Assembly: GCA_001816655.1 (NCBI GenBank)
Contig: MHCP01000025.1
Location: 78,428-142,427 of the forward strand
From: Candidatus Woykebacteria bacterium RBG_13_40_15
GTDB taxonomy: Bacteria > Patescibacteriota > Microgenomatia > Woykebacterales > RBG-16-39-9b
DNA length: 64,000 nt
Direction: 5' to 3'
Shown: positions 3,821 through 19,575 of the stretch, piece by piece
How the letters are laid out: the number at the start of each line of letters is the position of its first letter
How positions within the stretch are numbered: position 1 is the stretch's first letter
Position numbers and translations under genes: made by a program
The notes under the pieces: model-generated
Databases searched by the model: none
Seen by the model: the letters and a program-made list of their open reading frames with translations, nothing else
Told to the model about the DNA's origin: nothing

Positions 3821-3822
3821 TA

Positions 3823-4789: not shown

Positions 4790-4798
4790 GGAGAAAAA

Positions 4799-5362
4799 AT
4801 GGCATCATTTGATCAATTAGTAATTTCCTTTTTGGTTGACGAGATTGCTGGTGGTTTTTTTGCTGACGTTCCACCAGGACATGTCGCGACAGTTTATGAT
4901 CGTGGGAGAGGGGTTTTGAAACACACCTGGGGGCCTGGATTGCACTTCAAAATCCCCTTTTGGCAAAGAGCAAAAATATTCAATGCTCAAACGCTTGAAT
5001 ACACGATTCGCGATAATTTTAACGCTGATGAAAACAAAGAGTCTCTTGGAGACAGCATGATAAACGCTGTTACATCCGACAATGTGAATGTTCAAATCAA
5101 GGGTACTATACTTTTTAGAATTAATAAAGAAAATGTGGTATCTCTCTGGGAAAATATCGGCGAAAATTTTGTTTCAAAAATAGTCCGTCCAGTATCCAGG
5201 AGTAGAATACGAGGTGTTATTTCTCAAGTAACGTTTGCCCAGATTAATACTCACAGGCATGAGATCGAATCAAAAATAAAAGAAATGCTTGAATCTGAGT
5301 TCGCACCAAAAGGTATCATTGTCGAAAACGTTCTACTTTCCGATGTTGTCCAACCGGGGTAA
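4799..5362 (+). CDS. SPFH/band-7 domain protein (short)
   Basis: GLHFKIPFWQRAKIF...VNVQIKGTILFRI has the SPFH beta-strand pattern. It is shorter than typical HflC/K-type proteins. Confidence 0.55.
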   Translation: MASFDQLVISFLVDEIAGGFFADVPPGHVATVYDRGRGVLKHTWGPGLHFKIPFWQRAKIFNAQTLEYTIRDNFNADENKESLGDSMINAVTSDNVNVQIKGTILFRINKENVVSLWENIGENFVSKIVRPVSRSRIRGVISQVTFAQINTHRHEIESKIKEMLESEFAPKGIIVENVLLSDVVQPG

Positions 5363-5471
5363 CTCTTTTCGAGGGCATTTAATTAATCCTACCTTGACTT
5401 TTTCCCTAGAAAGAAATAAATTTTCTGATTAGATTGCCAGCTACACCAGCCAGACTAGAAAGGAGGGAGCC

Positions 5472-6200
5472 TTGCCTGAAACTAAGCATGCGAAAGAATT
5501 AACAGCTCTGGAGCATCGTAGCCTTTTGCTTGCTCTAAGAGAACCCTCTTCCACGTTCAGACAGATCGTGGAGGAAATCGAAGGAGAGCGTTGGTGTCGT
5601 AACGCAGCGAAAGAAGATCTGCTATTGTGGATCAAAGAAGCTCTTCAAGGTGCAGTAGATAAGATCGGTCGTAGATGGGCTAACACACACCCACGTAGCT
5701 TCCCTGGAGAGCTTAAGCAAAGATATTTCGACCTAAACGCATTCCGTGATGCAATGGCTCATATAATCGCTTGTTGGGAGGAAGAGCTCTCTGATAGAAG
5801 GTTGGAAGAGGAGCAGATTACTCATCAAGAGGCGAATCTTCCAGGTGGGTTTGAGCCCCCTCGGTTCGAAGCAGAACCAGTCCCTGTCGAAGAAGAAGAA
5901 GAAGAAGAAGAAAGGATGGTGGTAGAAAGCACTTCGGGTGAGATCACCCATCCCGTAGCATCTGGTCAGACGCAACAAATTACCCCACCTCGGGTCTGCC
6001 CAAGATGCAGGGGTACTATGATCGCCGAGCGTGATTGGTACGGCTCTTACAGAAGCTGCCTCAATTGTGGCAATGTTCAAGAGCTAGATTCTGCCAACAT
6101 TGCTCGTGCGGAAGAAATACTCACTCCAAGTGGAGGTGGAGACAACGAAAGGAAGAGAACGAAAGGCCCAAGCACAAGGCACGGGACCTTAAGGCTTTAG
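5472..6200 (+). CDS. hypothetical acidic protein with C-terminal C4 zinc ribbon, in a higher-GC segment
   Basis: It has CPRCRG...CLNCG and an internal poly-Glu run encoded by (GAA)8. GC is visibly higher than the flanking genes. Confidence 0.35.
   Translation: MPETKHAKELTALEHRSLLLALREPSSTFRQIVEEIEGERWCRNAAKEDLLLWIKEALQGAVDKIGRRWANTHPRSFPGELKQRYFDLNAFRDAMAHIIACWEEELSDRRLEEEQITHQEANLPGGFEPPRFEAEPVPVEEEEEEEERMVVESTSGEITHPVASGQTQQITPPRVCPRCRGTMIAERDWYGSYRSCLNCGNVQELDSANIARAEEILTPSGGGDNERKRTKGPSTRHGTLRL
5888..5911 (+). repeat. (GAA)8 trinucleotide microsatellite inside the CDS (poly-Glu)
   Basis: gaagaagaagaagaagaagaagaa is visible in the sequence. Confidence 0.9.
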
Positions 6201-6263
6201 AAGGGTCAGCTGCAAACGTGGTTGGCCCTTCTGTCACATTTAATTGGTCGTTAATTTTTAGAT

Positions 6264-6953
6264 TTAGAATTTAAATTTGGCTACAAAATCGAAACTGCAA
6301 GTGCAAGGCGCATTTTTACAAACATGGCAATCATTAGAAAAAAGAGTTGAGAGTTCTTTTGAAACATCCACCTCAATTGAATTAAATACCCCCATCAGAC
6401 AGGAGTAAAGATCAGCTGCTTCTTTTGAAATTTTATCAAAATCCTCTTCTTTGTGCTGACCACGAAAAGTCAAGACGCTTTCAGAAAACTCGCCCAATTC
6501 TTCTGCCAGGTGAATACCCCCATGTTCCAAGCTCCTCTCCTCAGGAGGATAAATTCTCCTAAACATTTTTTGAAAGTCACTTAAAGTTGCTGGTTTCAAG
6601 GCCTTAACATTATTAGGAATGGATTTGCGTTTTTTAACCTTTTTCTCCTTACAGGAACATGGGCAAGTACTACAATAAGAGCAAAGATAAGGAAACCTAC
6701 TCCAAATTTCATCCTCAATTTGTATATGAAGATGGTTCATTATAGACATGAGCCAACTAAGTGAGAGTAAAAGATTAATTTTTGTTTTTTCCCGGTCTTT
6801 TTTTCGAATACCTTTCAGTCCCCTCATTGCAAATCTTTGTGTATTAGTCAGCAAGTTACCGACACTATAATTTCGCATATTGTGTAGACCATAGACTTGT
6901 TGAACGAAATCTTGGTATTCAGAAATTGTGCTATTAGGCTTAACCGATGGCAT
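6264..6953 (-). CDS. hypothetical protein with a MazG-like NTP-pyrophosphohydrolase motif and a Cys-rich insert
   Basis: IHLAEELGEFSE resembles the MazG EExGE metal-binding helix. CSYCSTCPCSC forms a Cys cluster. Confidence 0.35.
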   Translation of the reverse strand: MPSVKPNSTISEYQDFVQQVYGLHNMRNYSVGNLLTNTQRFAMRGLKGIRKKDREKTKINLLLSLSWLMSIMNHLHIQIEDEIWSRFPYLCSYCSTCPCSCKEKKVKKRKSIPNNVKALKPATLSDFQKMFRRIYPPEERSLEHGGIHLAEELGEFSESVLTFRGQHKEEDFDKISKEAADLYSCLMGVFNSIEVDVSKELSTLFSNDCHVCKNAPCTCSFDFVAKFKF

Positions 6954-7068
6954 AAGTGCCTCTATTGTAGTTTTAAATAGACCAAAAAGTCAATTATAGG
7001 TTAGTTTAGAGATGGCAAAATCAATTCTATGGTGAGCATGTCGAATCCATGTATAATTAAATAGGTGA

Positions 7069-7701
7069 TTGGGGGCTAAATTGAAAAACTTACACAGGTA
7101 TTATTCGATCTTCTCTTACAAGTTTACGCAGTTAATTATCGCTTGTACCGCCGTTTTTGTTCTATCGTTGGTAGTAAAACTATTTCCGATTTCACAACTA
7201 GAGATAGCCTTATTCCGTTTGATTAATCACCTACCAGGCGTGCTTTATTTACCTTTAGTTATAATAATGCAGGCTGGTGCTTATTTTTCGATACTTATCT
7301 TTGCAACTATTGCTTTTGTTTTTAAGAAAAGGTTTCTTGCAGCAGAGTTACTTTTTGGTGGGACGTTAGCTTGGATTCTAGCTTGGGCTATAAAGTTAGC
7401 TGTTGTTAGACCTAGGCCTTTTGAAGTTTTAAGCCAAGTTTCATTGCGTGAATCAAATGTATATGGTTTTGGATTTCCTTCCGCGCACGCAGCAGTTGCC
7501 GCCGCTCTTGTAGCTGTCGCAAGCTTTCACTTCAAGAGTTGTTATTCATGGCTACTTTGGGTAGCAGTATTGATTGTTGCTTTTGCAAGAATTTATATGG
7601 GAGTTCATCTTCCGCTTGATGTAGCGGGAGGAGTTGCCTTGGGTTGGTTTGCGGGCCTTTTTACCCAATTAATTTTCAAATCTACCAGAAAAAGCGATTG
7701 A
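7069..7701 (+). CDS. PAP2-family phosphatase (undecaprenyl-diphosphatase-like membrane phosphatase)
   Basis: The PAP2 motifs KxxxxxxRP (KLAVVRPRP), PSGH (FPSAHA) and SRxxxxxHxxxD (ARIYMGVHLPLD) are present, with multiple TM helices. Confidence 0.75.
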   Translation: MGAKLKNLHRYYSIFSYKFTQLIIACTAVFVLSLVVKLFPISQLEIALFRLINHLPGVLYLPLVIIMQAGAYFSILIFATIAFVFKKRFLAAELLFGGTLAWILAWAIKLAVVRPRPFEVLSQVSLRESNVYGFGFPSAHAAVAAALVAVASFHFKSCYSWLLWVAVLIVAFARIYMGVHLPLDVAGGVALGWFAGLFTQLIFKSTRKSD

Positions 7702-7703: not shown

Positions 7704-8156
7704 CTACTTAATATATTCGGTATAACCGCCAAGAAGGTTATAAACTTCCCTGAAGCTTTCTTGTTTAAACACCTCAAGTGCTTTGGAGCTTCGGCCGCCG
7801 GATTTACAGTAAATTAGATAGGCACCATTTTTGTCTAAGGAAGCAATTTTTGATTCGAAATCGCTTTGGTAAAAGTCAATGTTAGTAGCATTTTCAATAT
7901 GCCCTTGTGCAAACTCGTCGGGAGTTCTAATGTCAATTATAAGAAAGTCTTTATTACCAGAGTTTCGTTTGATTAGTTCCTTAGCGTCAGTGGTGGAGAT
8001 TGATTGATAAGTCTCCGTTTTAGCCTGTAAAATATTATTTGTATTACCCTCTTTGGAAACTTCTTTAGTTTTAGAGTTTCCAATGACAACAAAAATTCCA
8101 AAAATTGCTCCAATTATTAAAATACCTATTACGAAAAGTTTTGTATTGTTTTTCAT
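7704..8156 (-). CDS. membrane-anchored rhodanese-domain sulfurtransferase
   Basis: Rhodanese fold with the active-site loop CKSGGRS and one N-terminal TM. The start was chosen at MKNNTKLFVIG; the 40 codons upstream that extend the ORF track overlap a dispersed repeat and are probably not coding. Confidence 0.7.
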   Translation of the reverse strand: MKNNTKLFVIGILIIGAIFGIFVVIGNSKTKEVSKEGNTNNILQAKTETYQSISTTDAKELIKRNSGNKDFLIIDIRTPDEFAQGHIENATNIDFYQSDFESKIASLDKNGAYLIYCKSGGRSSKALEVFKQESFREVYNLLGGYTEYIK

Positions 8157-8209
8157 GTAGCAATTGTAACAGAAATAATTATTAATTTCTGGGGGACTGA
8201 GAGTTGTCT

Positions 8210-8271
8210 GGTGTACTAAATTTATCCTGAGCGAAGTCGAAGGAAAGCGAAGGTTTAGAACTTTTTGTGCC
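8210..8271. repeat. Dispersed repeat family, copy A (partial)
   Basis: ggtgtactaaatttatcctgagcgaag...gaaggtttagaactttttgtgcc shares the 3' block (GTAGGAGAAYYTTTTRGTGC-like) and the ttatcctgagc block with copy B. Confidence 0.6.
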
Positions 8272-8399
8272 GACATCTAACCAGCCGCTTCTAGAATCTT
8301 TAAAACAACTTTATGATGTTTTTCTGAATTTCTCAATTACTTAATGTTATATATTAGTATTGATTTTTTCAACTTAAAAAAGTATCATGCTATTATACG

Positions 8400-8768
8400 A
8401 CTAAGGTAAAACCAACATCAACGCTAGCTTTAGAAGAAGCAAGGGAAGCAGTAGTAAAAATTAGGACCTTAAAGCCTCTCCTTTCCCCAATGGACTAGGA
8501 AACTCTTGTTACTCTAATGGACAAGGAATTGATGGGGCACCTAGATAAAAGCCTGAAAGAGGCTGAAAGGGGTCAACTGGAACCTCTAAAAAACATTTTA
8601 ATTTAGATGTATCAAAGAGTTACTACTCTCTCAGCTAAGCGTTCTCTTAAAAAGCTCCCCTTGAAATTACGTGAGGAAATCATAAACGCTACCAAGGTAC
8701 TTGAGGAGAATCAGCTAGAAGGCGAAAAACTTTCCGGTAGTCTTAATTTCCTGTACTCCTTCTTGTAA
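8400..8768 (+). pseudogene. Decayed type II toxin–antitoxin remnant (antitoxin-like fragment plus truncated RelE/ParE-like toxin)
   Basis: Hand translation of 8607-8768 gives MYQRVTTLSAKRSLKKLPLKLREEIINATKVLEENQLEGEKLSGSLNFLYSFL. This is the N-terminal half of a RelE/ParE fold (KLSG.L.G.Y) that stops before the catalytic C-terminus. Upstream fragments (...LEPLKNIL) are antitoxin-like. No intact ORF of 60 aa or more is present. Confidence 0.4.
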
Positions 8769-9068
8769 TAATTCATTTTGCTGATAAAAGAGAAAACTTC
8801 TACAAGAAGTTGCGTAACCTTTTCCGCTAGATTAAAGACAAGTCTGTTTATTCTTTTAGGACTAAACCCTTCTTTGAAAACTTCTTCAATAGGGAACTTT
8901 TATGCTCTTATTTAAACAAAGAAAAACGACCCATTTCTGAGTCGTTTCTCCTCCTAAGAAAACCAATTTCTTGATTTGCTTAGGGAAAGGCAGGTCTCAC
9001 AGGCAGAGCCTCAAGCCTCTCCTTCAATTTCCTAAAGGATGGGTTTAGTTCGACGAGGCAGTTTGTGC

Positions 9069-9383
9069 TTAAGAAAGCCGCTCGTTCAGACTGTCAATTG
9101 CTACGGAGATGGCCGCATGGCGGTAATCCAGTTGCTCTAGCTCCTGAATTACCCAAGGCAATGCTTCCTCTAGGATAATCATTGCCTCCAGAGTCCGAAG
9201 CTGACTGCATAGGCCTCCGATTTCCTGCAGTCTGCCTCTTTCCAATTCCTCAGCAGACATGAATCTTCCGCCGCTCCTGACCCCACCTCTTGCCATAGCG
9301 GGCTCAATTCCCTTCAGGTTCTCGCAGTGCGTTTTTATAGAGGTTATTACTGCCTCGTGTGCAGGTTTTAGTTCTTTTGGCAT
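9069..9383 (-). CDS. hypothetical protein in a higher-GC segment
   Basis: A 104-aa ORF with no recognised motif. Confidence 0.25.
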   Translation of the reverse strand: MPKELKPAHEAVITSIKTHCENLKGIEPAMARGGVRSGGRFMSAEELERGRLQEIGGLCSQLRTLEAMIILEEALPWVIQELEQLDYRHAAISVAIDSLNERLS

Positions 9384-9527
9384 CTCTCACCTCCCTTTCT
9401 TGATTGCTAGATTATATCAAACTATGTCAAAGTTGTTTGCAATAGATTGATGCAGCCTTACACCCCTGGGGTGTTTTAGGTTTACACCTGCGGTCGTTTA
9501 TATTATTTTTGATTTGTAGTGATGATT

Positions 9528-9577
9528 ACAAGGACGGGCCTTGCAAGCTGACAAGCTCATAAATGAAAAAGGAGTAA
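9528..9577. repeat. Repeat family RepA, copy 1
   Basis: acaaggacgggccttgcaagctgacaagctcataaatgaaaaaggagta is about 48 bp and nearly identical to 12549-12596. It contains the perfect hairpin GCAAGG-ACGGG-CCTTGC followed by an AAGGAG tract. Confidence 0.8.
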
Positions 9578-9613
9578 TTCGTGCGTCAACCCCGCGGGTT
9601 GGAAGCTAAATAG

Positions 9614-9640
9614 ACAACGAAGGGGTTGGTTGTTTAAGGG
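9614..9640. repeat. Repeat family RepB, copy 1 (partial)
   Basis: acaacgaaggggttggttgtttaaggg matches the copies at 10751-10790 and 11442-11477. Confidence 0.7.
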
Positions 9641-9709
9641 ATCAAATCCTCTGTAATACCTGTAAAAGCACTTGAAAATCGTCTAAAAATCGTCTAAAAT
9701 TAGTCTAAT

Positions 9710-10747
9710 ATGTTTAATCCTCACTACACTATCACAAACCAGATTTTGGCAAATATCAAAAGGATTGCCGATTTAATAAACGAGTTGAACCATAGGCGCT
9801 TCCCTCATGTCGTTTTGGTTGAGTTGGAGAAAACCGCAAGAGCAGTTTCTACCTATGCCTCAACCAGCATTGAAGGAAATCCTCTCCCCTTAACTGAAGT
9901 TAAAAAAATTCTCAAATCAAAACCATCTCATGTTCGAGAGAGTGAAAAAGAGGTTTTAAATTATAACCAAGCATTACAAGATCTAAACAAAAAACTTGAA
10001 GAAGGTAAAGTTAAATTGTCCCTTGATTTAATATTAAAGATCCAAAAACAGGTGACTGAGGGTCTCTTACCACCTTTTGAGTCTGGACTTTTAAGGCAAA
10101 AACCTGTTGTAATAAACGACCCACGGACCAAACAAGTTAAGTTTCTACCTCCTGATATAAAAGATGTAGAACCTTTTTTAAAAGATTTAATAGGATTTGT
10201 AAACGCTAGCAGAGATAAAATCGATCCACTTATTTTAGCCGGTATATTTCATAAACAAATGGTAATAATCCATCCATTCACAGATGGTAACGGCAGAACT
10301 ACTCGTCTTGCAACAAAAGTACTTCTAGCTGAAATGGGATTAAATACCTTTAATCTGTTTAGCTTCGAGAATTACTACAACAGAAACGTTACAAGGTATT
10401 TTCAGACTGTCGGAGAGTTTGGAAACTACTATGATTTACTTGATAAGATCGATTTTACACCTTGGCTTGAGTATTTTACTGAAGGAATCATAGACGAGCT
10501 CCTCCGAATACAAAAACTCCTTCCGGAGGTTGGGATAAGCCCTGAAACGAAGCTTCAAACCTACCACCTAAAGATACTTGGTTTTATTGGAGAAAAAGGG
10601 TTTATTACTGACAGCGATTATGCACAATTGGGCACCCGTGCAAAAGCCACAAGAGCACTTGACTTTCAAAAACTACTGGAGCTTGGTTTAATCGAAAGAA
10701 AAGGAAAAGGCAAGGCAACTTACTATATTTTAAGAGAGAAACAATAA
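9710..10747 (+). CDS. Fic/Doc-family protein (Fic_N plus Fic core plus C-terminal winged-helix)
   Basis: The Fic catalytic motif HPFTDGNGRTTR matches HPFx[DE]GNGR. The C-terminus looks like a wHTH (KGFITDSDYAQLGTRAKATRALDFQKLLELGLIERKGKGKATYY). Confidence 0.8.
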   Translation: MFNPHYTITNQILANIKRIADLINELNHRRFPHVVLVELEKTARAVSTYASTSIEGNPLPLTEVKKILKSKPSHVRESEKEVLNYNQALQDLNKKLEEGKVKLSLDLILKIQKQVTEGLLPPFESGLLRQKPVVINDPRTKQVKFLPPDIKDVEPFLKDLIGFVNASRDKIDPLILAGIFHKQMVIIHPFTDGNGRTTRLATKVLLAEMGLNTFNLFSFENYYNRNVTRYFQTVGEFGNYYDLLDKIDFTPWLEYFTEGIIDELLRIQKLLPEVGISPETKLQTYHLKILGFIGEKGFITDSDYAQLGTRAKATRALDFQKLLELGLIERKGKGKATYYILREKQ

Positions 10748-10750
10748 GTC

Positions 10751-10790
10751 TGTAAATAAACAATGAGGGGGGGGGGTGGTTGTTGATTGA
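10751..10790. repeat. Repeat family RepB, copy 2 (carries a G9 homopolymer)
   Basis: tgtaaataaacaatgagggggggggtggttgttgattga. Confidence 0.7.
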
Positions 10791-10850
10791 CATAGCTAGG
10801 TATTATATACTTATAAATGTATTGTCCAAAATAGTTAAAGAGATACTGAC

Positions 10851-11171
10851 ATGAAACAGATAAATCGACTACCAAAACTTCCAAAAAAAATATTAGTTGA
10901 GATAAAAAAGGCTGATTCTGGAGATTTTTTAGCTTATATCCCCGAGTTTGACATTTTCACTGAGGCTGATAATCCCGCACACTTGATTCTCCAAGTTAAT
11001 GATTTGATATATGCTTACTTTGACGTCCCTAAAAAATATCAAGCACAACTTCATTTTTTCCCTCCGTTAGAAGTCTTGGAGGATTTGTGGGGTATTAGAG
11101 AGGTAAAACTACCAAAAGTCCAATTTAGCTCCTTCTACACCCCAAACAGCCACCTGCTCCAGTGCGTATGA
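10851..11171 (+). CDS. HicB-like antitoxin-family protein
   Basis: KKILVEIKKADSGDFLAYIPEFDIFTEADNPAHLILQVNDLIYAYF fits the HicB_like/UPF0150 pattern (I.K.EDG.Y.A.VPEL.G..T.GDT.EEA). It overlaps the downstream HicA-like gene by 10 nt. Confidence 0.5.
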   Translation: MKQINRLPKLPKKILVEIKKADSGDFLAYIPEFDIFTEADNPAHLILQVNDLIYAYFDVPKKYQAQLHFFPPLEVLEDLWGIREVKLPKVQFSSFYTPNSHLLQCV

Positions 11172-11410
11172 AATCATTTGGCTCCAAAGACTTAATCAGA
11201 TGTTTGCTTTGTTTAAAGTTTAAAGAAGGCAAACAGGTAGCGTCATCTCACATAAAATACCATTGTCCTAAGAAAGCAGCTGTTGGAACCCGCCCATTCA
11301 TAACCGTTATTCTAGGTAGAAAAACGTATGATCCGGTAACTAGGGGTAGATATTTGAACCAAATGAAAAAACTGGGATACTCTCTTGAAGAAATAAAAAA
11401 GTGTATGTAG
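11162..11410 (+). CDS. HicA-like mRNA-interferase toxin
   Basis: ...SKDLIRCL...KQVASSHIKYHCPKKAAVGTRPFITVILGRKTYDPVTRGRYLNQMKKLGYSLEEI carries the conserved SH at the YcfA/HicA GSH-motif position and the C-terminal 'I..agls.eef' tail. Confidence 0.55.
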   Translation: MRMKSFGSKDLIRCLLCLKFKEGKQVASSHIKYHCPKKAAVGTRPFITVILGRKTYDPVTRGRYLNQMKKLGYSLEEIKKCM

Positions 11411-11441
11411 CTACTGTGTTTTAACAGAAAAAATTTTTCGC

Positions 11442-11477
11442 TGTAAATAAACAATGAGGGGGTTGGTTGTTTAAGGA
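11442..11477. repeat. Repeat family RepB, copy 3
   Basis: tgtaaataaacaatgagggggttggttgtttaagga. Confidence 0.7.
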
Positions 11478-11530
11478 AATTTTGCCAACGAAAAAGGGGC
11501 ACTCCTTGGTTGATGAGTACCCCTGTTCGT

Positions 11531-11815
11531 CTACTCCCCTTCGGCTGCCGATGATCTCTGTGAGATGTCTTCTCTTTTACGAAAGGCCTTCTCGATTTCG
11601 CTTCTTGCAACCCTCTCCCAGCGCTTAATCACGAAGGGTGTGATTATACCGAGTATCAGGACTACAACCAGCAAGACTAGTCCTACATGTGGCCGGAGGA
11701 ATAGGACAATCAATGTCCCGATTACGCTGCTGCATGTGCTAAAGAGCCAGAAACCCGTTAGCCTTTCTCTCGTTTGGGTTACCCTCTCTTCTTCTTTTCT
11801 CCTTGTCGTCATTGT
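11531..11815 (-). CDS. small two-TM membrane protein (about 95 aa) in a GC-rich segment
   Basis: This is the C-terminal part of the 229-aa ORF-track entry, starting at the internal MTTRRKEE. There are two clear hydrophobic helices. The upstream part of that ORF overlaps the 177-aa ORF out of frame. Confidence 0.3.
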   Translation of the reverse strand, partial: TMTTRRKEEERVTQTRERLTGFWLFSTCSSVIGTLIVLFLRPHVGLVLLVVVLILGIITPFVIKRWERVARSEIEKAFRKREDISQRSSAAEGE

Positions 11816-11853
11816 GGTTCTCCCTCTCCGCTTTCCCGACTCCTGTCCGCGTG

Positions 11854-12387
11854 TTACTGAGAGTGCTTTCTCCCAAAGAGGAGACGGGCGCCCAAGATAA
11901 CAAGAATAAGATGGGCAAGAATTGTTCCCTTTACTCCTCTGAATTGGGCTTCTCGTGCTTCCGGTTGCGGTGCCTCTGTTTGCAGGAGTTGCAATTGAGC
12001 TGCATCTACCATCACCGCTCTTACTGCTGTGCCCAAGGCGAGTCGGTAGACACAACCTCCCCCCACTACTACACAGACGACCGCTGCCAGCAAAAGCGCA
12101 GCCCCAAGGGAGTTCCCGGGATTGACGTGATTCTCGGAATCGAGAATCGTAAAGCCGAAGACCGTCAAGGCTAATGTTGCTGCGATTGTAAGCGAAATAA
12201 TGATAGGCAGGATTTTCCATTCGCGTCCGCCGCCTATATGCTCTTCATCTTCGGCTAACTGTTTGGCTAGACGAAGACGATCCGAGATTGGCAATTTCGA
12301 TGCCCCGACGATTGCCCTACTAAGTAGGGTTAGTCGGTCTAGGACCTCTGCCAACTCGATTTCATCCGAGTCCCTGGCGTTAACCAT
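11854..12387 (-). CDS. membrane protein (177 aa) in a GC-rich segment
   Basis: An acidic N-terminal region of about 50 aa is followed by three or four hydrophobic helices. Confidence 0.35.
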   Translation of the reverse strand: MVNARDSDEIELAEVLDRLTLLSRAIVGASKLPISDRLRLAKQLAEDEEHIGGGREWKILPIIISLTIAATLALTVFGFTILDSENHVNPGNSLGAALLLAAVVCVVVGGGCVYRLALGTAVRAVMVDAAQLQLLQTEAPQPEAREAQFRGVKGTILAHLILVILGARLLFGRKHSQ

Positions 12388-12548
12388 GGGATCACTTCCT
12401 TTCGCTACTGACTATTTCCTCTCCCTTTTCTTGAGTTATTTGCTGGATTTAATTGTGCTGTTTTTGATTGTAGCACAAGGATTTATTTTTTGGAAGTTAA
12501 GCGCTTATTGTGAGTTGGTTAGGGGTTGAACTCATAAATTTTATAACT

Positions 12549-12596
12549 GCAAGGACGGGCCTTGCAAGCTGACAAGCTCATAAAAGAAAAGGAGTA
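12549..12596. repeat. Repeat family RepA, copy 2
   Basis: gcaaggacgggccttgcaagctgacaagctcataaaagaaaaggagta. The shared tttttgatt(t)gtag block also appears upstream in both copies. Confidence 0.8.
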
Positions 12597-12640
12597 CCCC
12601 ACCACCTGTGTTTGGTAAGGTACTCCTCGCGTTCTCTCTC

Positions 12641-12817
12641 CTAGCTTCCTTGGTATTCTGGTCGGATTGCTATTATGAGCAGAACGGCCAGAACAGCGAT
12701 AATGACTACACTAAACACTGCAATCAGGGGAGGAAGAAAACAAACGGTCAAGCTGCTTAGAACGCCAGCAGAAAGACCTATCCTTATTAGTTTTATTTTC
12801 CACTGGATGTATTTCAC
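12641..12817 (-). CDS. possible small membrane protein (58 aa, GTG start), below the ORF-track cutoff
   Basis: Hand translation of the minus strand gives VKYIQWKIKLIRIGLSAGVLSSLTVCFLPPLIAVFSVVIIAVLAVLLIIAIRPEYQGS. Confidence 0.2.
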   Translation of the reverse strand: MKYIQWKIKLIRIGLSAGVLSSLTVCFLPPLIAVFSVVIIAVLAVLLIIAIRPEYQGS

Positions 12818-12904
12818 TTCCCTCCCCCTTCCTTGTGAGATATCAGCAGACCGATGGCTGCAAAAGCGGCGAAGAGTAAGACCGCTACTTGGTCTCGTCT
12901 TTTC

Positions 12905-13198
12905 TTACTTGCCGAAAGGGCCGAAGGAACATAGAGTCGGCAGGCTCCCTAAGGTCGTCGTTGTGGCTTCGGCTTTTCCGCATGCTTCCACCCGCGTGTT
13001 GGTTACCAGTTGATAACCACCGAAGACAAGCACTCCGGCTACTAGGATTACTCCTAGGTACCGAGTACCCTTCCTAGCCTTTTCGAAAAAGGCCTTCAGG
13101 CGCGGGCCGAAAGCCAGACCCAAACCGAGTAGTGCTACCAATCCAAAAAAGACCAGCAGCGTTAGGTTGCAGGAGTTGATTGCGATTGTTAAGAGCAT
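12905..13198 (-). CDS. small membrane protein (97 aa) in a GC-rich segment
   Basis: Two or three hydrophobic helices; MLLTIAINSCNLTLLVFFGLVALLGLGLAF... Confidence 0.3.
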   Translation of the reverse strand: MLLTIAINSCNLTLLVFFGLVALLGLGLAFGPRLKAFFEKARKGTRYLGVILVAGVLVFGGYQLVTNTRVEACGKAEATTTTLGSLPTLCSFGPFGK

Positions 13199-13685
13199 CG
13201 ATCTCTCCTTTCGATTTTTTGCTCTTTTCTAGAACCTGCCTGCTTGTAATTGTTACTAGTTTAAAATTATAGGGTGTAAAAGTCAATAGGTTTAGGGTCT
13301 ATGCTCTAAAATTGAGGCTAAAAAATGCTGTGGTCAATAACAAGGATCGGATTTTCTTCAAAAAAGGAAAAGGCAGACCAAAAAGATGCTTCATGCGAAT
13401 GCATCCGGCCTGCCCATCAGTCCGTGGGTGCTGGCTCTCTCTGTTGCGGTCCCTGATAAAGCTGGACTGCGCCTTATCTTCCACCGCGAGCGGACACCGC
13501 AGGTTTCGCGCGTAGCGGACGATCGCCTCTCTACTTCTAAGTAAGAGGCACAAATCGCTGGGCCCCTAGCAGTTAACTGCATCTGCAGATCGGTAGAGAA
13601 TACCGCTGCGTTGACCCATTTGCGCCGCGTTGTGCGAAGCCAGGCAAGTATAACAAAGAAAAGTAGGAAAGTCAATACTATGGGG

Positions 13686-14011
13686 TGCTGAGGTTGATTG
13701 GTGCACTGTATTAGATTTTACTTTAAGACTTTTTAACTGGCAAAAAGTATAAAAACCAAACAAACCAGAGTAACCAGAGTAAATCCTTCCAGTCTTGGGT
13801 TAAAATTCCTGGGATGCCCAAAAAACCGATAAATCCTAAAAAACCAAGTGTCCAGGTTTTTTTCATAATTTTATTATACACCGAGTTCCGAATCATGAGT
13901 GATGCTTGTCCTGAGCTAGTTCACACTGAGCTGAGTTTATCCTGAGCAGCTCGCAATGAACTCGCTGTGAACTGAAGTGAAGGGAAGTGAAGTAGGAGAA
14001 CTTTTAGTGCC
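13686..14011. repeat. Dispersed repeat family, copy B (long form, about 326 bp)
   Basis: The 5' end tactatggggtgctgaggtt and the 3' end gaagtaggagaacttttagtgcc match copies C and D. The internal cctgagc blocks match copy A. Confidence 0.6.
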
Positions 14012-14019
14012 TATATTTG

Positions 14020-14056
14020 AACAAAAGAAAACGGCGATAAGTTTCCCTATCGCCGC
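14020..14056 (-). terminator. Rho-independent terminator for the minus-strand gene ending at 14077
   Basis: The hairpin GGCGATA-GGGAAAC-TTATCGCC (minus-strand sense) is followed by GTTTTCTTTTGTT. Confidence 0.5.
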
Positions 14057-14076
14057 ATTCAGAATGTAACAATCCC

Positions 14077-14415
14077 TCAGTCCAGAGCCTCCCGATCACT
14101 GATAGAACGAACCAAGGGCCTGCCAAGGCGCGATGCCAGCACCATTTCGTGGGCAACAAAGCTGCCCATCGTCTCGATTAGGTCTATTGCTAATCGGCCT
14201 CTTGCTTCCGGGCTCTTGCATCTGCAGCTACAGATGATTGCTAGAAGAGCCAGATCCTCGGCCATTTGCCCTGCTCTCTCAGGGGCTATCGGTTCACCAT
14301 GGTTCAGAAACGATTCCCTCCGGGCCTCTTCGAGCAGCTCTCTTGCTATCGATATTATCTCCTGCTCGTCTTCACTTCTCTGAGCTTTGAGGCCCCTTCT
14401 GCCTCCATATCCCAT
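14077..14415 (-). CDS. hypothetical protein (112 aa), GC-rich
   Basis: ORF only. It contains a CSCRC cluster. Confidence 0.3.
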   Translation of the reverse strand: MGYGGRRGLKAQRSEDEQEIISIARELLEEARRESFLNHGEPIAPERAGQMAEDLALLAIICSCRCKSPEARGRLAIDLIETMGSFVAHEMVLASRLGRPLVRSISDREALD

Positions 14416-14457
14416 GGCAGTCTCCTTCTTTCTACTGGCGTTAGAATTACAAGTTGT

Positions 14458-14892
14458 TCAGCCCGCAGCAACCTTTGGTTTTACGCGTTTTAGATGAACT
14501 GGATGTATAAACCAGCTCATTGACCGAGCAAGGAAAACACACTTCTCGTCCTCTTTCCCGAAATCTACCAACACGTAGGTGGGGAAGATGGTTTCATTTT
14601 CCCTGACCATCATAGTCCATTCGGAAAACTCTCCGATAAGGCGGACATCATCACCGTGGTAGTACTGATGAAATGGGTCGCCCCAAGACTCCACTCCGTG
14701 GCGGTCGGGTGGTTCACTTGCAGGCTTCAGGCCAGATTTTTGCATGTAGATAGGTAAGCCGTCTGTACGGCCATCCGCATCATATGCCAGGACAGCCACC
14801 AAGCTGCCTTGGTCCGCCTCCACACGAAGGGTGGCATCCTGAAGGCGATCTATGAGCCTGAACAACTCTACTTTCGTGGGTTGATTCCGCAT
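14458..14892 (-). CDS. hypothetical protein (144 aa), GC-rich
   Basis: ORF only. It lies on the same strand as its neighbours with short gaps, which suggests an operon. Confidence 0.35.
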   Translation of the reverse strand: MRNQPTKVELFRLIDRLQDATLRVEADQGSLVAVLAYDADGRTDGLPIYMQKSGLKPASEPPDRHGVESWGDPFHQYYHGDDVRLIGEFSEWTMMVRENETIFPTYVLVDFGKEDEKCVFLARSMSWFIHPVHLKRVKPKVAAG

Positions 14893-14966
14893 TACTTGCT
14901 CCCTCCCTTCCTTGTGTACTATTAGCTGTTTCCCTACGAACTGCTGGCACAGTTTCTATACGCTAG

Positions 14967-15326
14967 CTACCTGACAGTTTTAACTTTCCATATACCAGAT
15001 CCTCTCGATGATGGTGCGACCAACAGGTCCCCACTTATAAGTGGCCTTGGTCGTAACCTGTTTGATATGTGTGTCTTAGGGCAGGCTAATCGAAACGAGT
15101 TCTCATTTCGTCTAGCTCGATATCCACAACCAATGTCAGTGTACACTTCCCGACCATCGGTTATCTCCGCGAGCTTACTAGAAGTAATCTCGGTATCTCT
15201 AGGTATTCTCGCAAGATTGCCGTACGTATAGTCAAAATCCCACTCTGTCAAAAGAATGGTAACCGGGTTTCTACTGGCCGTTTGTTGGGTTTTTTTGGCA
15301 AACCGCCCAAAGATCCTAGATAGCAC
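14967..15326 (-). CDS. hypothetical protein (119 aa), GC-rich
   Basis: ORF only. Confidence 0.3.
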   Translation of the reverse strand: MLSRIFGRFAKKTQQTASRNPVTILLTEWDFDYTYGNLARIPRDTEITSSKLAEITDGREVYTDIGCGYRARRNENSFRLACPKTHISNRLRPRPLISGDLLVAPSSRGSGIWKVKTVR

Positions 15327-15430
15327 AATCGTCTCCTTTCGAGTGTTAGAAATCTTTCTCCCAAAGCCGTCTAGGAACCTATTTAACTGTTAACGCAGAT
15401 GATTATACCAGAAAGGAATATAAAATCAAG

Positions 15431-15511
15431 TACTATGGGGTGCTAGGGTCGTCTAGTGTACGACGTTACTTGTCCTTCGTAGCTTTAGCGAAGTAGGAGA
15501 ATCTTTTGTGC
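15431..15511. repeat. Dispersed repeat family, copy C (compact complete form, 81 bp)
   Basis: tactatggggtgctagggtcgtctagtgtacgacgttacttgtccttcgtagctttagcgaagtaggagaatcttttgtgc. Confidence 0.7.
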
Positions 15512-15526
15512 AACAGCGCGACTGTT

Positions 15527-15555
15527 GACAGCTGTACACAAAAATGTAATACTGG
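15527..15555 (+). promoter_or_regulatory. putative sigma70-type promoter of the phd–relE operon
   Basis: TTGACA, then a 16-nt spacer, then TAATAC immediately upstream of the antitoxin start. Confidence 0.3.
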
Positions 15556-15559
15556 CACT

Positions 15560-15832
15560 ATGTCTACAAAAACATTACCTGTTACCGAAGCTAGGAAGAA
15601 TTTAACAGATTTAGTGGGCAAGGCCTCAAGTCAATTGGATGAATATGTTATTACCGTGAAAGGCAAACCAAAAGCAGTTCTGATAAGCGCTGTTGAATTT
15701 GAAGGATGGAAAGAAACAAATGAAATTTTATCCAATCCAAAACTCGTCAAAGCTATACATGAAGGTGAGGAAGACATAAAAGCTGGTAGGATTGTAACCC
15801 TCGAAGGCCTCAAAAAAGAGTTTCATGTATAA
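15560..15832 (+). CDS. Phd/YefM-family antitoxin
   Basis: MSTKTLPVTEARKNLTDLVGKAS...ITVKGKPKAVLISAVEFEGWKET has the canonical Phd/YefM N-terminus. Its stop overlaps the toxin start. Confidence 0.75.
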   Translation: MSTKTLPVTEARKNLTDLVGKASSQLDEYVITVKGKPKAVLISAVEFEGWKETNEILSNPKLVKAIHEGEEDIKAGRIVTLEGLKKEFHV

Positions 15833-16082
15833 ACTAATTCTTTCTGCAAGAACAAGAAAAGAATTAAAAAAAGTTCCCAAACAACATAGAGAAGCAATAC
15901 TTCTAGCATTAGATGAAGTTAAAAACGATCCTTTTGAGGGAAAACCTTTATCCCGAGAACTTATCGGTAGATTTAGCTACCGAGTTGGGGTCTATAGAGT
16001 TATTTACCAAGTGAATAAACAAAACCAAACTATTTATATTTCAACTGCCGCTCATAGAGGAAAGGTTTATAAAAGAAAGTAG
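15825..16082 (+). CDS. RelE/ParE-family toxin
   Basis: GKPLSRELIGRFSYRVGVYRVIYQVNKQNQTIYISTAAHRGKVY has the R(V)GDYR(V)IY...V..IGHR pattern. Confidence 0.8.
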   Translation: MYKLILSARTRKELKKVPKQHREAILLALDEVKNDPFEGKPLSRELIGRFSYRVGVYRVIYQVNKQNQTIYISTAAHRGKVYKRK

Positions 16083-16096
16083 TTAAAATCATTGGT

Positions 16097-16130
16097 TTCG
16101 TCTAATGTACGACGTTAGAATCTTTTGTGC
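16097..16130. repeat. Dispersed repeat family, copy D (partial)
   Basis: ttcgtctaatgtacgacgttagaatcttttgtgc reproduces the gtctaRtgtacgacgtta block and the atcttttgtgc 3' end of copy C. Copies C and D directly flank the phd–relE cassette. Confidence 0.7.
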
Positions 16131-16236
16131 GTATATTTAAAAATAGCTACTTAGCTTATCAGAATCTTAATTAATGAGTGGCTCTCTCCTTTCTCCATGA
16201 GAGTTCCACTCGGTAACAGGCTGATGCTTTGTCTGC

Positions 16237-16695
16237 TTAATCGGTTTGGGTAGTGCCCCCTAGATCCACTACTCGGACGAAACCAGTTTCGGAGAACAGT
16301 GTGAGGGGTAGGAGGCTATCGAACGATACCACCTTGAAACCCTCTCGAACCCCGATTGCCTCACCGCCCCAGAGACTAAGACGGACCCGGATCATGATCC
16401 AGCAGTATTCGAAAAGGAACCTTGTCTTTATCTCGAACTCTACTATCCGATCCGCTAACTCCATCTTAGCTTCATACGTGTTCGCTGCCTTGAGGGAACG
16501 TTCCGCCTCGGCGGCCTTCTCAAGGAAGAGAGAAGCGGCAGAAACCACTTCTATCTCATCCTCGATCAGATCGCCGACAATCCTTTCGCCTTGGCGAACG
16601 GGTGTTAGGATCGTGAGAGGCCTCCTTAGTTCCCTTCTCGGCAAGGGAACTGTGAATGGCAGTCTCTTTAGCCAACTACCTCTTCTTGTAGGCAT
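16237..16695 (-). CDS. hypothetical protein (152 aa), GC-rich
   Basis: ORF only. Confidence 0.3.
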   Translation of the reverse strand: MPTRRGSWLKRLPFTVPLPRRELRRPLTILTPVRQGERIVGDLIEDEIEVVSAASLFLEKAAEAERSLKAANTYEAKMELADRIVEFEIKTRFLFEYCWIMIRVRLSLWGGEAIGVREGFKVVSFDSLLPLTLFSETGFVRVVDLGGTTQTD

Positions 16696-16871
16696 AGAAA
16701 ACTCCTTCCTTCTTGCTCGCTCCTTTATTGTTATGGGATTATACCATAGTTATGGAATTTTTACTTTGTGTATTGGCCCAAAAATACTAGAATGACAATA
16801 ATAAAAGAAGAATATGTTAAAATGGTTGTTGTAACAACATAAATTGAAGATAAACACACCTTAAAAAGTGC

Positions 16872-16948
16872 TGGGGTGGGTGAGGGGGTTCGAACCCCCG
16901 ACCTTCCCCTCCACAGGGGGACGCTCTACCGATTGAGCTACACCCACC
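16872..16948 (-). tRNA. tRNA-His (anticodon GTG) with encoded G-1
   Basis: G-1 plus acceptor GTGGGTG/CACCCAC, anticodon stem TCCCC/GGGGA with loop CTGTGGA, T arm GGGGG-TTCGAAC-CCCCT, discriminator C, CCA encoded. Confidence 0.85.
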
Positions 16949-16951
16949 AAG

Positions 16952-17419
16952 TTATCCAATAAATCCGTGTTTAAGATAATGGCAGTTTCTGCAAAGTAAG
17001 GCTAAATTAGAAACATCGTTATTCTTTCTATCTCCATCTCTATGATGAACTACCAAGACTCGCTCGTCAGAAAAATTACAACATTCACATTTTAACACTT
17101 TTGAATGGTTAAATAAAACTTTCCTGTAAGAACTAACTCCTGTCCGCCAATTGGGATTATTTATGCTGAATCTTAAATTTTTATTTGCCCAGCTGGCATG
17201 GCAAGAATAGCTACAAAAGAATAAATTACTTTTAGATTTCTTGAATTGAGCTGGGGTTCTGTAAAGTGCATTACCACAATGTGCGCATTTTACAGTCCTT
17301 CCTTTTTTCTGGGCTTCAAACTTACATTTATCCGAGCAAAATTTACCCCACCCAATTTTAATATGTCTCGGCTTCGCATAAAATTTTCCGCTGCAAATTT
17401 TACAATTTAACCAAGGCAT
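16952..17419 (-). CDS. HNH endonuclease with N-terminal Cys-rich zinc-finger region
   Basis: HHRDGDRKNNDVSNLALLCRNCHYLKH is an HNH motif. Multiple CxxC pairs lie upstream. Confidence 0.75.
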   Translation of the reverse strand: MPWLNCKICSGKFYAKPRHIKIGWGKFCSDKCKFEAQKKGRTVKCAHCGNALYRTPAQFKKSKSNLFFCSYSCHASWANKNLRFSINNPNWRTGVSSYRKVLFNHSKVLKCECCNFSDERVLVVHHRDGDRKNNDVSNLALLCRNCHYLKHGFIG

Positions 17420-17521
17420 TTTTAAATTCTAACCCGGAGGTTCACAAAATGTCAATCAAAAAGGTTGTGTTAAAAACGATTGGACACCCATGTTATTTAG
17501 GGAGAGGTCGAAAATATGGAG

Positions 17522-18643
17522 TTATTCGGGACGATTATCGAGCCCAACAGCCTCTGAGAGGCTTTCTAAGCCGTCTTTTTTCAAAAGCCGAGCTAATCCC
17601 TGGTTTATTTCAGCTACGACCTGAGGCCCGTCGTAAATCATCCCGGTTATTAGTTCTATCAGAGAAGCGCCCAGTTTTATTTTCTTATAAGCATCTTCTG
17701 CAGAAAAAACTCCCCCACAACCAATTATTACGAATTTTTTACCAAATTTTCTATAAATATAGGAGATCAATTCGTTTGATGCTGCCTCTGCTGGCTTACC
17801 ACTAATTCCTCCTGCTACCGGAACAGATTTATCAGCTAATTTAATCCTTTTTTTAGTCAAATTTGAACACACAAACCCTGTTATTTTGTGTCGTTCAGCA
17901 ACATTAATTATTTCATCAACCTGACTTGTCGGCAAATCCGGTGGCATCTTTAAAAAGATGGGTTTTTTTGTTTCGGTTTTATCAATTTCGGCTAATAATA
18001 ACTCAAGTTTTCCAGGATCAGTAAATGGTTCTCCACCAAAAGCGTTGGGGCAGCTGATATTTATGGTAAAAAATGCTCCAATTTCTAAAAACGATTTGTA
18101 GGCCTTGACATAATCAGCAATTCCGTCTTTAAGGACAGAAGTTTTAGCGCTATTTGTTTTCGCTACATTTACCCCAACCGGAATCGAAAAATTTTTGTTT
18201 CCTAATCTTTTACTTATTTTTTTGCAGCCTTCGTTTCTAAGACCGTAATTAACAACAATCCCCTTTGATTTTGGTATTCTCCAAAGGCGGGGTTTTGGGT
18301 TTCCACTGCAGGGCTCTCCGGTAACAGAACCGATTTCAGCAAAACCAAACCCAACAGAAGGTAAAATATTTGTTAAATAACCATCTTTGTCGAAACCAGC
18401 CGCTAAACCGATTGGATTTTTAAAGCGAATTCCGGCAAGCTCTTGGCTCAAGGTTTTGTTCGAATAATTGAATAAAACTCCGGTTTTAAAACGAGTTACC
18501 GGATTAGAACCTAAAAATCGGCCAGTATTGATTGCAAGGTTATGAACTGTTTCAGCCTCTATTAAAAATAAAACCGGCCTCAAAATCGCCCGATAAAGAA
18601 AACCGAGAAGAGTATTTCGTACTGAAATAATTATCTCCATCAA
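17522..18643 (-). CDS. pyrD: dihydroorotate dehydrogenase (quinone), class 2
   Basis: FKNPIGLAAGFDKDG, GFGFAEIGSVT, NISCPN and IIGCGGV are class-2 DHODH signatures. An N-terminal hydrophobic segment is present. Confidence 0.85.
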   Translation of the reverse strand: MMEIIISVRNTLLGFLYRAILRPVLFLIEAETVHNLAINTGRFLGSNPVTRFKTGVLFNYSNKTLSQELAGIRFKNPIGLAAGFDKDGYLTNILPSVGFGFAEIGSVTGEPCSGNPKPRLWRIPKSKGIVVNYGLRNEGCKKISKRLGNKNFSIPVGVNVAKTNSAKTSVLKDGIADYVKAYKSFLEIGAFFTINISCPNAFGGEPFTDPGKLELLLAEIDKTETKKPIFLKMPPDLPTSQVDEIINVAERHKITGFVCSNLTKKRIKLADKSVPVAGGISGKPAEAASNELISYIYRKFGKKFVIIGCGGVFSAEDAYKKIKLGASLIELITGMIYDGPQVVAEINQGLARLLKKDGLESLSEAVGLDNRPE

Positions 18644-19251: not shown

Positions 19252-19424
19252 TTTAACTCACCTCCTTAATAAGGACGACAAAAATAAAATATTGACAAAG
19301 AAAAACCTAAATTACAACAGGCAAGCAAGTTTTGTTTACGAATGGTCCTTCTGGTACTCAAAATACGAGTAGGCAGCTGTGTAGATTGAAACCAAAATAA
19401 ATGGTACGATTAATTTTTTATAAT

Positions 19425-19499
19425 GGTGCCCTCGGAGAGATTCGAACTCTCAACTCTGGGTCCGAAGCCCAGTGTTTTATCCGTTATACTACGAGGGCC
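19425..19499 (-). tRNA. tRNA-Arg (anticodon TCG) with an atypical D arm
   Basis: Acceptor GGCCCTC/GAGGGCA, anticodon stem CTGGG/CCCAG with loop CTTCGGA, T arm GAGAG-TTCGAAT-CTCTC, CCA encoded. The D-arm pairing is weak, so the isotype call is moderate. Confidence 0.6.
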
Positions 19500-19575
19500 T
19501 GGAGCGCGAGACGGGATTCGAACCCGCGACCTTCTCCTTGGAAGGGAGACGCTCTACCAGCTGAGCTACTCGCGC
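19500..19575 (-). tRNA. tRNA-Gly (anticodon TCC)
   Basis: Acceptor GCGCGAG/CTCGCGC, anticodon loop CTTCCAA, T arm GCGGG-TTCGAAT-CCCGT, CCA encoded. It abuts tRNA-Arg. Confidence 0.85.

Follow-up and report, generated by a model that had tools for sequence, protein, structure and literature searches.

A putative tRNA-anchored array of integrase-less cassettes in a Candidatus Woykebacteria genome

The window analyzed here is a stretch of 64,000 nucleotides (nt) of contig MHCP01000025.1 (positions 78,428 to 142,427) from Candidatus Woykebacteria bacterium RBG_13_40_15. It contains a genuine accessory island of 8.7 kb beyond a tRNA-His gene. The island is bounded on its distal side by a rhodanese gene, and its limits (8190–16876) lie near those first given. 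With moderate confidence, this region is read as a tandem array of small integrase-less cassettes built on the CCA end of tRNA-His.

The island behind tRNA-His

The tRNA-His(GTG) gene occupies positions 16872–16947 of the minus strand and, as the first-pass annotation had placed it, turns its 3' end towards the island. The CCA is encoded. The gene ends in CACCCA-CCCCA and is followed by GCAC, so that its last bases and the first bases of its trailer form a short core, CCCCAGCAC, at 16868–16876. From the discriminator base through the CCA to the first bases of the trailer, the sequence is identical to the core of a repeat that recurs between the gene units of the island.

This junction repeat, read in the direction of the tRNA, is composed of a conserved 40-nt P arm (GCACAAAAGATTCTAACGTCGTACACTAGACGA), the 9–10-nt core and one of two right arms. 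The right arm P'1 is a promoter (CCCTATAGT-TTGACTT-N17-TATAAT). The right arm P'2 is a trailer-type sequence (TTTTTAGCCTCAATTTTTGTTGTTACAACAACCATTTTAA...) with a T-run directly after the core. Two other repeat families, D1 and D3, occur in the left part of the island. The features are, from the DHODH gene to the rhodanese gene (aa, amino acids; ORF, open reading frame; GC, guanine plus cytosine):

17522–18643, minus: DHODH gene; protein 100% identical to that of RBG_13_40_15
16952–17419, minus: HNH endonuclease gene (Pfam), outside the array
16872–16947, minus: tRNA-His(GTG) with encoded CCA, anchor of the array
16775–16867, minus: trailer-type right arm P'2
16237–16695, minus: GC-rich 152-aa ORF OGY23475.1, cargo of cassette 1; no family match
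16089–16137, minus: the sole uninterrupted P arm of the window (16098–16137) with its core; nhmmer E 4e-14 to 2e-15
15560–16082, plus: Phd/YefM antitoxin and ParE/RelE toxin genes (Pfam), intact, inverted in the array
15432–15512, minus: P arm interrupted at TTCT^AAC by 30 inserted nt, then core CCCTAGCAC
15397–15448, minus: right arm of promoter type, P'1 (CCCCATAGTACTTGATT-N16-TATAAT), directed into the cassette that follows
14031–15326, minus: three-gene GC-rich operon (119, 144 and 112 aa) with ribosome-binding sites; intrinsic terminator at 14031–14056
13904–14023, minus: degenerate P arm GGCACTAAAAGTTCT, then an insertion of about 90 nt related to those in the two other split P arms
13723–13896, minus: AT-rich ORF of 57 aa, hydrophobic, DUF3796-like (E 1.9e-6)
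13644–13715, minus: degenerate P end, core CCTCAGCAC and promoter-type right arm (TTGACT-17-TATACT)
13335–13643, minus: segment of 55% GC with promoter and terminator-like hairpin; no ORF with a start site
13300–13333, minus: core-like CCACAGCA and trailer-type right arm TTTTTTAGCCTCAATTTTAG
12589–13198, minus: pair of GC-rich hydrophobic ORFs (97 and 58 aa); strong terminator at 12589–12628
12543–12590, minus: repeat D3 copy b, with a promoter-like site ahead of the GC-rich cassette that follows
11531–12387, minus: two GC-rich membrane-type ORFs (177 and 93 aa); terminator-like hairpin near 11490–11530
11444–11476, plus: repeat D1 copy c
10851–11410, plus: AT-rich ORF pair (106 and 82 aa) with a 10-nt overlap
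9710–10747, plus: Fic enzyme, single gene (Pfam 1.2e-17)
9522–9569, minus: repeat D3 copy a, ahead of the 104-aa ORF
8920–9383, minus: GC-rich 104-aa ORF OGY23465.1 (9069–9383) with ribosome-binding site GGAGGTGA; terminator-like hairpin near 8920–8950
8400–8768, plus: weak ParE/RelE-like remnant with a 53-aa ORF (8607–8768)
8190–8283, minus: terminal junction with a P arm carrying a 36-nt insertion, core CCCCCAG and the rhodanese promoter TGTTACAAT-N6-ATG
7704–8156, minus: rhodanese gene, the conserved distal flank (Pfam 1.2e-18)

The left boundary beside rhodanese bears a terminal copy of the junction repeat, which bears out the earlier placement of the island between rhodanese and tRNA-His. 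This terminal junction is read as a putative far attachment site, attR-like. The composition profile proposed in the first-pass annotation reveals a mosaic: patches of 50–55% GC lie within the island against a background of about 38%. An independent scaffold, L194, is 99.7% identical to the window and collinear with it over 13533–15304, across junctions between GC-rich and AT-rich segments. An assembly chimera is therefore ruled out as the source of the mosaic. A search of 8000–17500 with Rfam at a permissive threshold returned only the tRNA.

Relatives in the genome collection are distant, with a DHODH identity of 63% or less, and closer ones were obtained by searches of metagenomes and of a protein index. 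Those found by DHODH are L081/L161/L162 (86%), L164 (84%) and L195 (84%); L165/L166 and L167/L196 were found via rhodanese. L081/L161 and L164 retain the order Lon, tRNA-Arg/Gly, SOD, DHODH, tRNA-His, and DHODH and tRNA-His are kept together on the short contig L195. Beyond tRNA-His, these loci have no island gene in common with the window or with each other. The cargo consists of a glycosyl hydrolase, a metallophosphatase and an LRR protein in L081, of more than 12 small genes, mostly of unknown function, in L164, and of a HAD hydrolase and others in L195. The suggested comparison with relatives thus upholds the accessory island, since the flank is kept and the DNA behind the tRNA has no gene in common with the window. 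Rhodanese adjoins DHODH in more distant relatives, and an origin of the array between these two genes fits this arrangement. The tRNA-Arg(TCG)/tRNA-Gly(TCC) pair of the flank is inverted in L081 (6793–6944) relative to the window (19424–19575) and L164 (8494–8644).

The HNH endonuclease gene had been assigned to the island. It sits on the 5' side of tRNA-His, between DHODH and the tRNA, and no HNH gene is found at that place in L081/L161, L164 or L195. Because it is missing there in all compared relatives, HNH is a separate, window-specific insertion and no part of the array.

The junction repeat

The repeat was first seen as short BLAST matches between L081 and the window at 16085–16141, 15432–15468 and 13650–13715. 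The comparison yielded these short repeat matches only, with no island gene in common, and a profile was then built. Searched with nhmmer, the profile finds seven copies in L164, four in L081 and two in L195, with E values down to 1e-18. L165 has two copies, one strong (E 1e-9) and one weak (E 0.004), and L167 and L196 each have two strong copies and a weaker one. The window has two clear copies by profile and three counted as degenerate; weaker copies are seen at about 14023–13997, 13715–13685, 13333–13300 and 8283–8190. Among about 2.3 Mb of fetched loci, the repeat is restricted to these Woykebacteria loci. Every copy lies between gene units and is oriented as tRNA-His or rhodanese, and the units so delimited measure 0.5–5 kb in all these genomes. 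Between genomes, the P arms show about 90% identity or more, and the core genes 76–80% at the DNA level. The P arm, overlooked in the first-pass annotation, is the third and most informative repeat family of the island.

The junctions fall into discrete types. The tRNA joins the core and P'1 in L164, and the core and P'2 in the window, L081 and L195. P-core-P'1 and P-core-P'2 are found at internal junctions. P-core-rhodanese promoter is found in the window, with an interrupted P arm, and in L165. A P arm lies directly upstream of rhodanese in both L165 and L166; in L165 it is followed by CCCCA and then by rhodanese's own promoter. All three junction types predicted by tandem integration are therefore present, and their order (tRNA-core-P', serial P-core-P', P-core-rhodanese) is that expected from tandem integration of P-core-P' elements.

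L012 (Woykebacteria RBG_16_39_9b; 170–430 and 2824–2860) and L167 have a variant of the P arm whose last bases, GGAGCCA, mimic the tRNA-Asn 3' end. Behind the tRNA-Asn gene of L012 lies a 15-nt copy of that gene's 3' end, fused to a P'1 arm. A MAFFT alignment pairs GGTTCTAAC of the P arm with GGTTCGAAC of the tRNA T-loop. The window and L195 share about 105 nt of nearly identical P'2 trailer behind tRNA-His, and the cargo diverges beyond it. The trailer arm of the window is also similar to the arm after an internal repeat of L164 (L164:19744). A duplicated tRNA-His fragment of at least 15 nt was looked for at the far end, and none was found. Only the 9–10-nt core CCCCAGCAC recurs, in degenerate form, at the junctions and by rhodanese. 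When three P-arm patterns were scanned in viral contigs, only chance 17-mer matches were obtained, and the scan revealed no phage or plasmid that carries the site. The second tRNA-Asn(GTT) of the window, at 38610–38685, scores 35.5 bits with the Rfam tRNA model, compared with 56–75 bits for the other tRNAs.

In the window, the P arms at 15512, 14023 and 8283 carry related insertions of 30–90 nt at the same point, TTCT^AAC. The inserted segments (8219–8254, 13904–13996 and 15469–15498) share CCTACTTCGC...GCTCAGGATAAA, and 23 nt of them are also present in a Curtissbacteria locus (L002). They probably represent a small mobile repeat with a site preference. The uninterrupted P arm at 16089–16137 has a core mutated to AACCAATGA. 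Because nearly all junction sites are mutated or interrupted, the window array is largely fossilised.

Two other explanations of the repeat can be judged from these data. Short, highly conserved repeats between genes might belong to a non-autonomous element resembling a miniature inverted-repeat transposable element (MITE) or a repetitive extragenic palindromic (REP) sequence, which accumulated in an already variable, intergenic-rich region. The related insertions at one point in three window copies also indicate that small mobile sequences are active here. Such an element is nevertheless quite improbable. Terminal inverted repeats and target-site duplications are not seen, all copies keep one orientation and one locus in every genome examined, and the right-hand partner switches in discrete classes at the core.

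The second explanation takes the repeat as a conserved regulatory module. An insulator or terminator (hairpin, CCCCAGCAC and T-run) would be combined with a promoter of the lineage, and cargo would turn over by homologous recombination between modules of about 100 nt after DNA uptake. P'1 indeed looks like a working promoter that also occurs outside the island, the trailer-type arm opens with its T-run directly after the core, and no recombinase has been found. Modules of 100–150 nt with about 90% identity could, moreover, support homologous exchange. However, the junction types switch exactly at the 9–10-nt core common to the tRNA CCA end, a stretch shorter than RecA-type exchange would need. 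Each P-arm variant corresponds to the 3' end of its adjoining tRNA, His or Asn, and neither the strict single orientation nor the clustering at a single locus is required of a regulatory module. The P-arm hairpin has one variable and one invariant side and shows no compensatory changes. A regulatory module is thus considered unlikely. A P'1-type promoter outside the island lies at 49644–49692 on the plus strand (TAACCCATAGTTGACTTT-N17-TATATT), ahead of a 170-aa ORF.

The D1 and D3 repeats

The two unrelated repeat families described in the first-pass annotation are real and confined to the island, where no copies are expected by chance. D1 has three copies (9607–9639, 10753–10785 and 11444–11476), which bracket the Fic gene and the two-gene module. 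The two copies of D3 are 97.6% identical over 41 nt and 92% over the 48-nt family. Topologically, both are in the roles of the junction repeat, D3 with a promoter before a GC-rich unit and D1 at module ends. D1 was also considered as a degenerate partial tRNA-His; the 10 nt in common (AACCCCCTCA) are too weak a basis for the claim.

GC-rich cargo genes

The GC-rich patches of the island contain nine ORFs, all on the minus strand: 9069–9383, 11531–11812, 11854–12387, 12641–12817, 12905–13198, 14077–14415, 14458–14892, 14967–15326 and 16237–16695. Seven such ORFs had been counted at first. Their GC-rich nature and lack of family hold, and the correct count is nine, plus one AT-rich DUF3796-like ORF. 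The ORFs of the island are annotated as hypothetical proteins A2172_04580 to 04630, with the GC-rich ones within OGY23465–OGY23475.

Several properties mark these ORFs as foreign cargo. Each of the nine has a strong ribosome-binding site of GGAGG type. GC at the third codon position (GC3) ranges from 0.41 to 0.57 and is mostly at least 0.49, the values of 0.41–0.42 belonging to 12641–12817 and 14967–15326. GC at the first position exceeds that at the second in eight of the nine, the exception being 14967–15326. The units have sigma-70-like promoters and intrinsic terminators; for OGY23475.1, a TGGTATAAT promoter lies near 16740, and the ribosome-binding site is AAGGAG. Genes of host type, among them Fic and the toxin-antitoxin genes, have a GC3 of 0.2–0.4 and mostly no ribosome-binding site. 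The same GC mosaic is present in L164 and L081. Several AT-rich genes of the host are preceded by a TAnAAT-like box 5–8 nt before the ATG (for example at 8157–8180, 40332–40356 and 52239–52262), which suggests that leaderless mRNAs may be common in this organism.

Comparison of the nine ORFs with Pfam, PHROGs, PADLOC and NCBIfam gave nothing beyond noise, save one marginal PHROGs match. For the 144-aa ORF, a full HMMER search of 1.84 billion representatives returned two clusters only, the ORF itself and one protein of 50% identity. The gene of this homologue is likewise GC-rich, with a ribosome-binding site, in an AT-rich contig, and the conservation supports real coding of the predicted 144-aa protein. 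The AlphaFold model of this protein (predicted local distance difference test, pLDDT, 48) was too poor for a fold search. Taken together, the nine GC-rich genes are real near-orphan cargo. The GC-rich segment at 13335–13643 of the minus strand, which has a folding z-score of -2.0 and no Rfam match, is either a decayed cassette or a small RNA.

Toxin-antitoxin, Fic and other AT-rich modules

Four modules of toxin-antitoxin type had been proposed for the island. One of them, the intact Phd/YefM-RelE pair at 15560–16082, is confirmed in both halves. The antitoxin (15560–15832) matches PhdYeFM_antitox with 53.4 bits (cut-off 29.8), and the toxin (15825–16082) matches ParE_toxin with 34 bits (cut-off 23). 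The antitoxin gene comes first, and the two genes overlap by 8 nt (15825–15832). The pair is inverted and tightly packed between two P arms, as is a true HicAB pair in L167/L196. It is the only supported type II toxin-antitoxin pair in the island.

The other three modules fare differently. The decayed ParE/RelE remnant at 8400–8768 retains a match, albeit a weak one. Its 53-aa ORF aligns with the first half of a ParE-like model with an E value of 1e-3, and its 19.5 bits are below the cut-off of 28. The pair at 10851–11410, first described as HicB-like and HicA-like, has a real ORF overlap and no family support. It gives no Pfam match at E<=1, no BLASTP similarity to HicA and HicB of L167 and no sequence match in the PDB, and the AlphaFold model of its HicA-like ORF (pLDDT 61) is too poor for fold comparison. 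The HicBA call is therefore unsupported; the layout alone resembles a toxin-antitoxin pair.

The Fic gene at 9710–10747, the core of the proposed Fic/Doc module, is present, and no partner antitoxin ORF lies beside it. The 345-aa protein contains the active-site motif HPFTDGNGRTTR and an N-terminal S-x-x-x-E-G inhibitory motif, the latter read from the translation. Its match to the PADLOC SoFic profile (E 3.6e-42) is full-length, and it scores 58.9 bits with the NCBIfam equivalog, for which the cut-off is 550. Because it has its own inhibitory motif and matches the SoFic profile, Fic is predicted to be a single-gene SoFic-like enzyme, not a Doc-Phd toxin-antitoxin pair. It resembles SoFic and the class II Fic AMP-transferases in both motifs and in the full-length profile match. 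Its score falls far below the equivalog cut-off. In PADLOC, only this gene gives a strong match; HNH is weak, and the nine GC-rich ORFs give none. The label of defence island given to the locus thus comes down to one SoFic-like match and one toxin-antitoxin pair.

A true HicB-like antitoxin gene is found in L167, as a cassette between two P arms. The window opens (1–333) with the last part of a zinc-ribbon ORF, behind which a 51-aa stretch (172–333, minus strand) is 92% identical to the N terminus of this antitoxin. Because rhodanese is only about 67% identical between the window and L167, the HicB-like module probably moved horizontally.

With tRNA location, foreign composition and toxin-antitoxin genes, and no integrase, the locus could also be a single classical island or prophage remnant, integrated once at the tRNA-His 3' end, deprived of its integrase and decayed, with incidental internal repeats. 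This explanation is very improbable. No displaced tRNA fragment of at least 15 nt is present, and the composition alternates on a fine scale among ten or more units, each of which has a promoter and a terminator to itself. Four relatives have the same repeat-punctuated layout with wholly different genes, and phage families are not matched save for the one marginal case.

A model for the array

The serial insertion of cassette-like units put forward in the first-pass annotation is borne out by repeat-bounded units and mosaic composition. The structure of the locus, its repeat, its types of junction and the exchange of cargo among relatives are observed. From them, we infer site-specific recombination, its direction and a supply of the enzyme in trans. 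Each circular cassette would carry one complete attP-like site of about 100–150 nt, made of the P arm, the core and P'1 or P'2. A recombinase encoded elsewhere would join this site with the core at the tRNA or at any earlier junction. New cassettes would thereby stack behind the tRNA, and older ones would be pushed towards rhodanese. Two classes of cargo would be carried. The first comprises GC-rich near-orphan genes with ribosome-binding sites, in array direction and with their own promoter and terminator each. The second comprises inverted, AT-rich modules of addiction or defence type (Phd-ParE/RelE, the SoFic-like Fic and the familyless two-gene pair).

Several observations speak against such an array. 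As reported in the first-pass annotation, the island has no integrase. Neither the island nor the window's ORFs of 150 aa or more gave a recombinase domain or motif, and those of tyrosine, serine and HUH recombinases were not found in the window, in L161, L164, L165 and L167, or in the tested cassette ORFs. No circular or empty-site form has been observed, nor has any cassette been seen in more than one position of the array. Only 9–10 nt are identical to the tRNA, and at some junctions the break comes a few nt earlier, behind GACGA or CCCCA. P'1 is also an ordinary promoter type of the lineage, with a copy outside the island. The left half of the island (8.3–13.3 kb) is partitioned by D1 and D3, which are window-specific and not found in relatives. 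Finally, the comparison covers five related genomes, all from metagenomes.

More tentatively, and with slightly more doubt than belief, Woykebacteria may own an integron-like platform for gene capture. It would combine a tRNA-CCA anchor (His or Asn, with an arm matching the tRNA), integrase-free attP-like cassettes with sites of about 100–150 nt, often with their own promoter, and a recombinase encoded elsewhere. Such a platform would offer foreign genes that depend on ribosome-binding sites a route into a host mostly without such sites.

Comparison with known systems

Tandem arrays of integrative elements at tRNA or tmRNA genes are exemplified by the tycheposon islands of Prochlorococcus (bioRxiv 10.1101/2020.12.28.424599) and by the ssrA-linked islands of Dehalococcoides (PMC3146451). 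Like these accretion arrays, the window has a variable island directly behind a tRNA, in which successive integrations would push older elements inward. In addition, it has att-type repeats oriented as the tRNA between units, decayed remnants, and cargo of unknown and defence type. However, its units measure 0.5–5 kb and contain neither integrase nor replication module. The identity with the tRNA covers 9–10 nt at the CCA end, whereas the known arrays have a partial tRNA of 15–50 nt or more. Here, a 40-nt element-side arm is combined with one of two right arms, so that each internal junction looks like a complete attP. Neither the tRNA-specific tyrosine recombinase nor the replication module of a tycheposon is found in the window or in the arrays of the relatives. 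Islander-type islands are resembled in the location at a tRNA 3' end and in the variability among relatives, but not in the presence of an integrase.

Elements that are flanked by att sites and lack an integrase are known as cis-mobilizable elements (CIMEs). The window array resembles them in its tandem units, its direct att-type repeats and its hybrid junction types. The term itself is used in PMC5704250.

The array also recalls a chromosomal integron or an integrase-less attC cluster (CALIN). The likeness includes a fixed anchor, an ordered, one-orientation array of small cassettes with one to a few genes each, and a recombination-site-like repeat at each cassette 3' end. Inverted toxin-antitoxin cassettes are interspersed, as in large chromosomal integrons, and the enzyme is not part of the cassette. 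An integron in the strict sense is, however, almost certainly the wrong explanation. IntI or another tyrosine recombinase is not found in the window or in the loci of the relatives, and the anchor is a tRNA 3' end with its CCA, not an attI site beside intI; attI was not found either. The repeat is conserved in sequence (about 90%) and not, as expected of attC hairpins, in structure, and the alignment contains no RYYYAAC ... GTTRRRY ends. Most cassettes have their own promoters, and many also have their own ribosome-binding site and terminator. An attC reading of the repeat is rejected on its sequence conservation, the missing GTTRRRY end and the uncompensated hairpin.

The pdif modules of Acinetobacter plasmids are small, often contain toxin-antitoxin or accessory genes, and are bounded by short recombinase sites; their movement is attributed to a host recombinase in trans. 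The pdif sites are 28-nt XerC/XerD sites of alternating orientation and lie on plasmids. The sites of the window, in contrast, measure about 100 nt, are all direct and chromosomal, and are tied to a tRNA.

Literature searches returned no description of cassette arrays or integron-like systems in bacteria of the candidate phyla radiation. These bacteria have tiny genomes, and their gene gain is little understood. The P-core model provides a concrete, searchable signature by which gene flow could be mapped, the recombinase found by co-occurrence and the pool of near-orphan cargo recovered. Toxin-antitoxin cassettes also occur within such arrays outside classical integrons. If a recombinase acts on a 10-bp core at the tRNA CCA end with a portable site of about 100 nt, the system is a potential small integration tool.

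Neighboring genes

Three further loci are described here. Two GC-rich genes (52–55%) with ribosome-binding sites lie between Lon and tRNA-Gly/Arg at 19818–22346 and encode a PLP decarboxylase-like and an aminotransferase-like protein. Because both are missing at this place in L081 and L164, the pair is a separate recent acquisition. At 57045–58112, an isolated GC-rich gene (53%) with a ribosome-binding site and weak HAD-like matches is embedded in AT-rich surroundings. In L165, the region 2514–7471 by the array end contains CarS-like, UbiA, CDP-alcohol phosphatidyltransferase and radical SAM genes, a lipid-type set that is unusual for this bacterial group.

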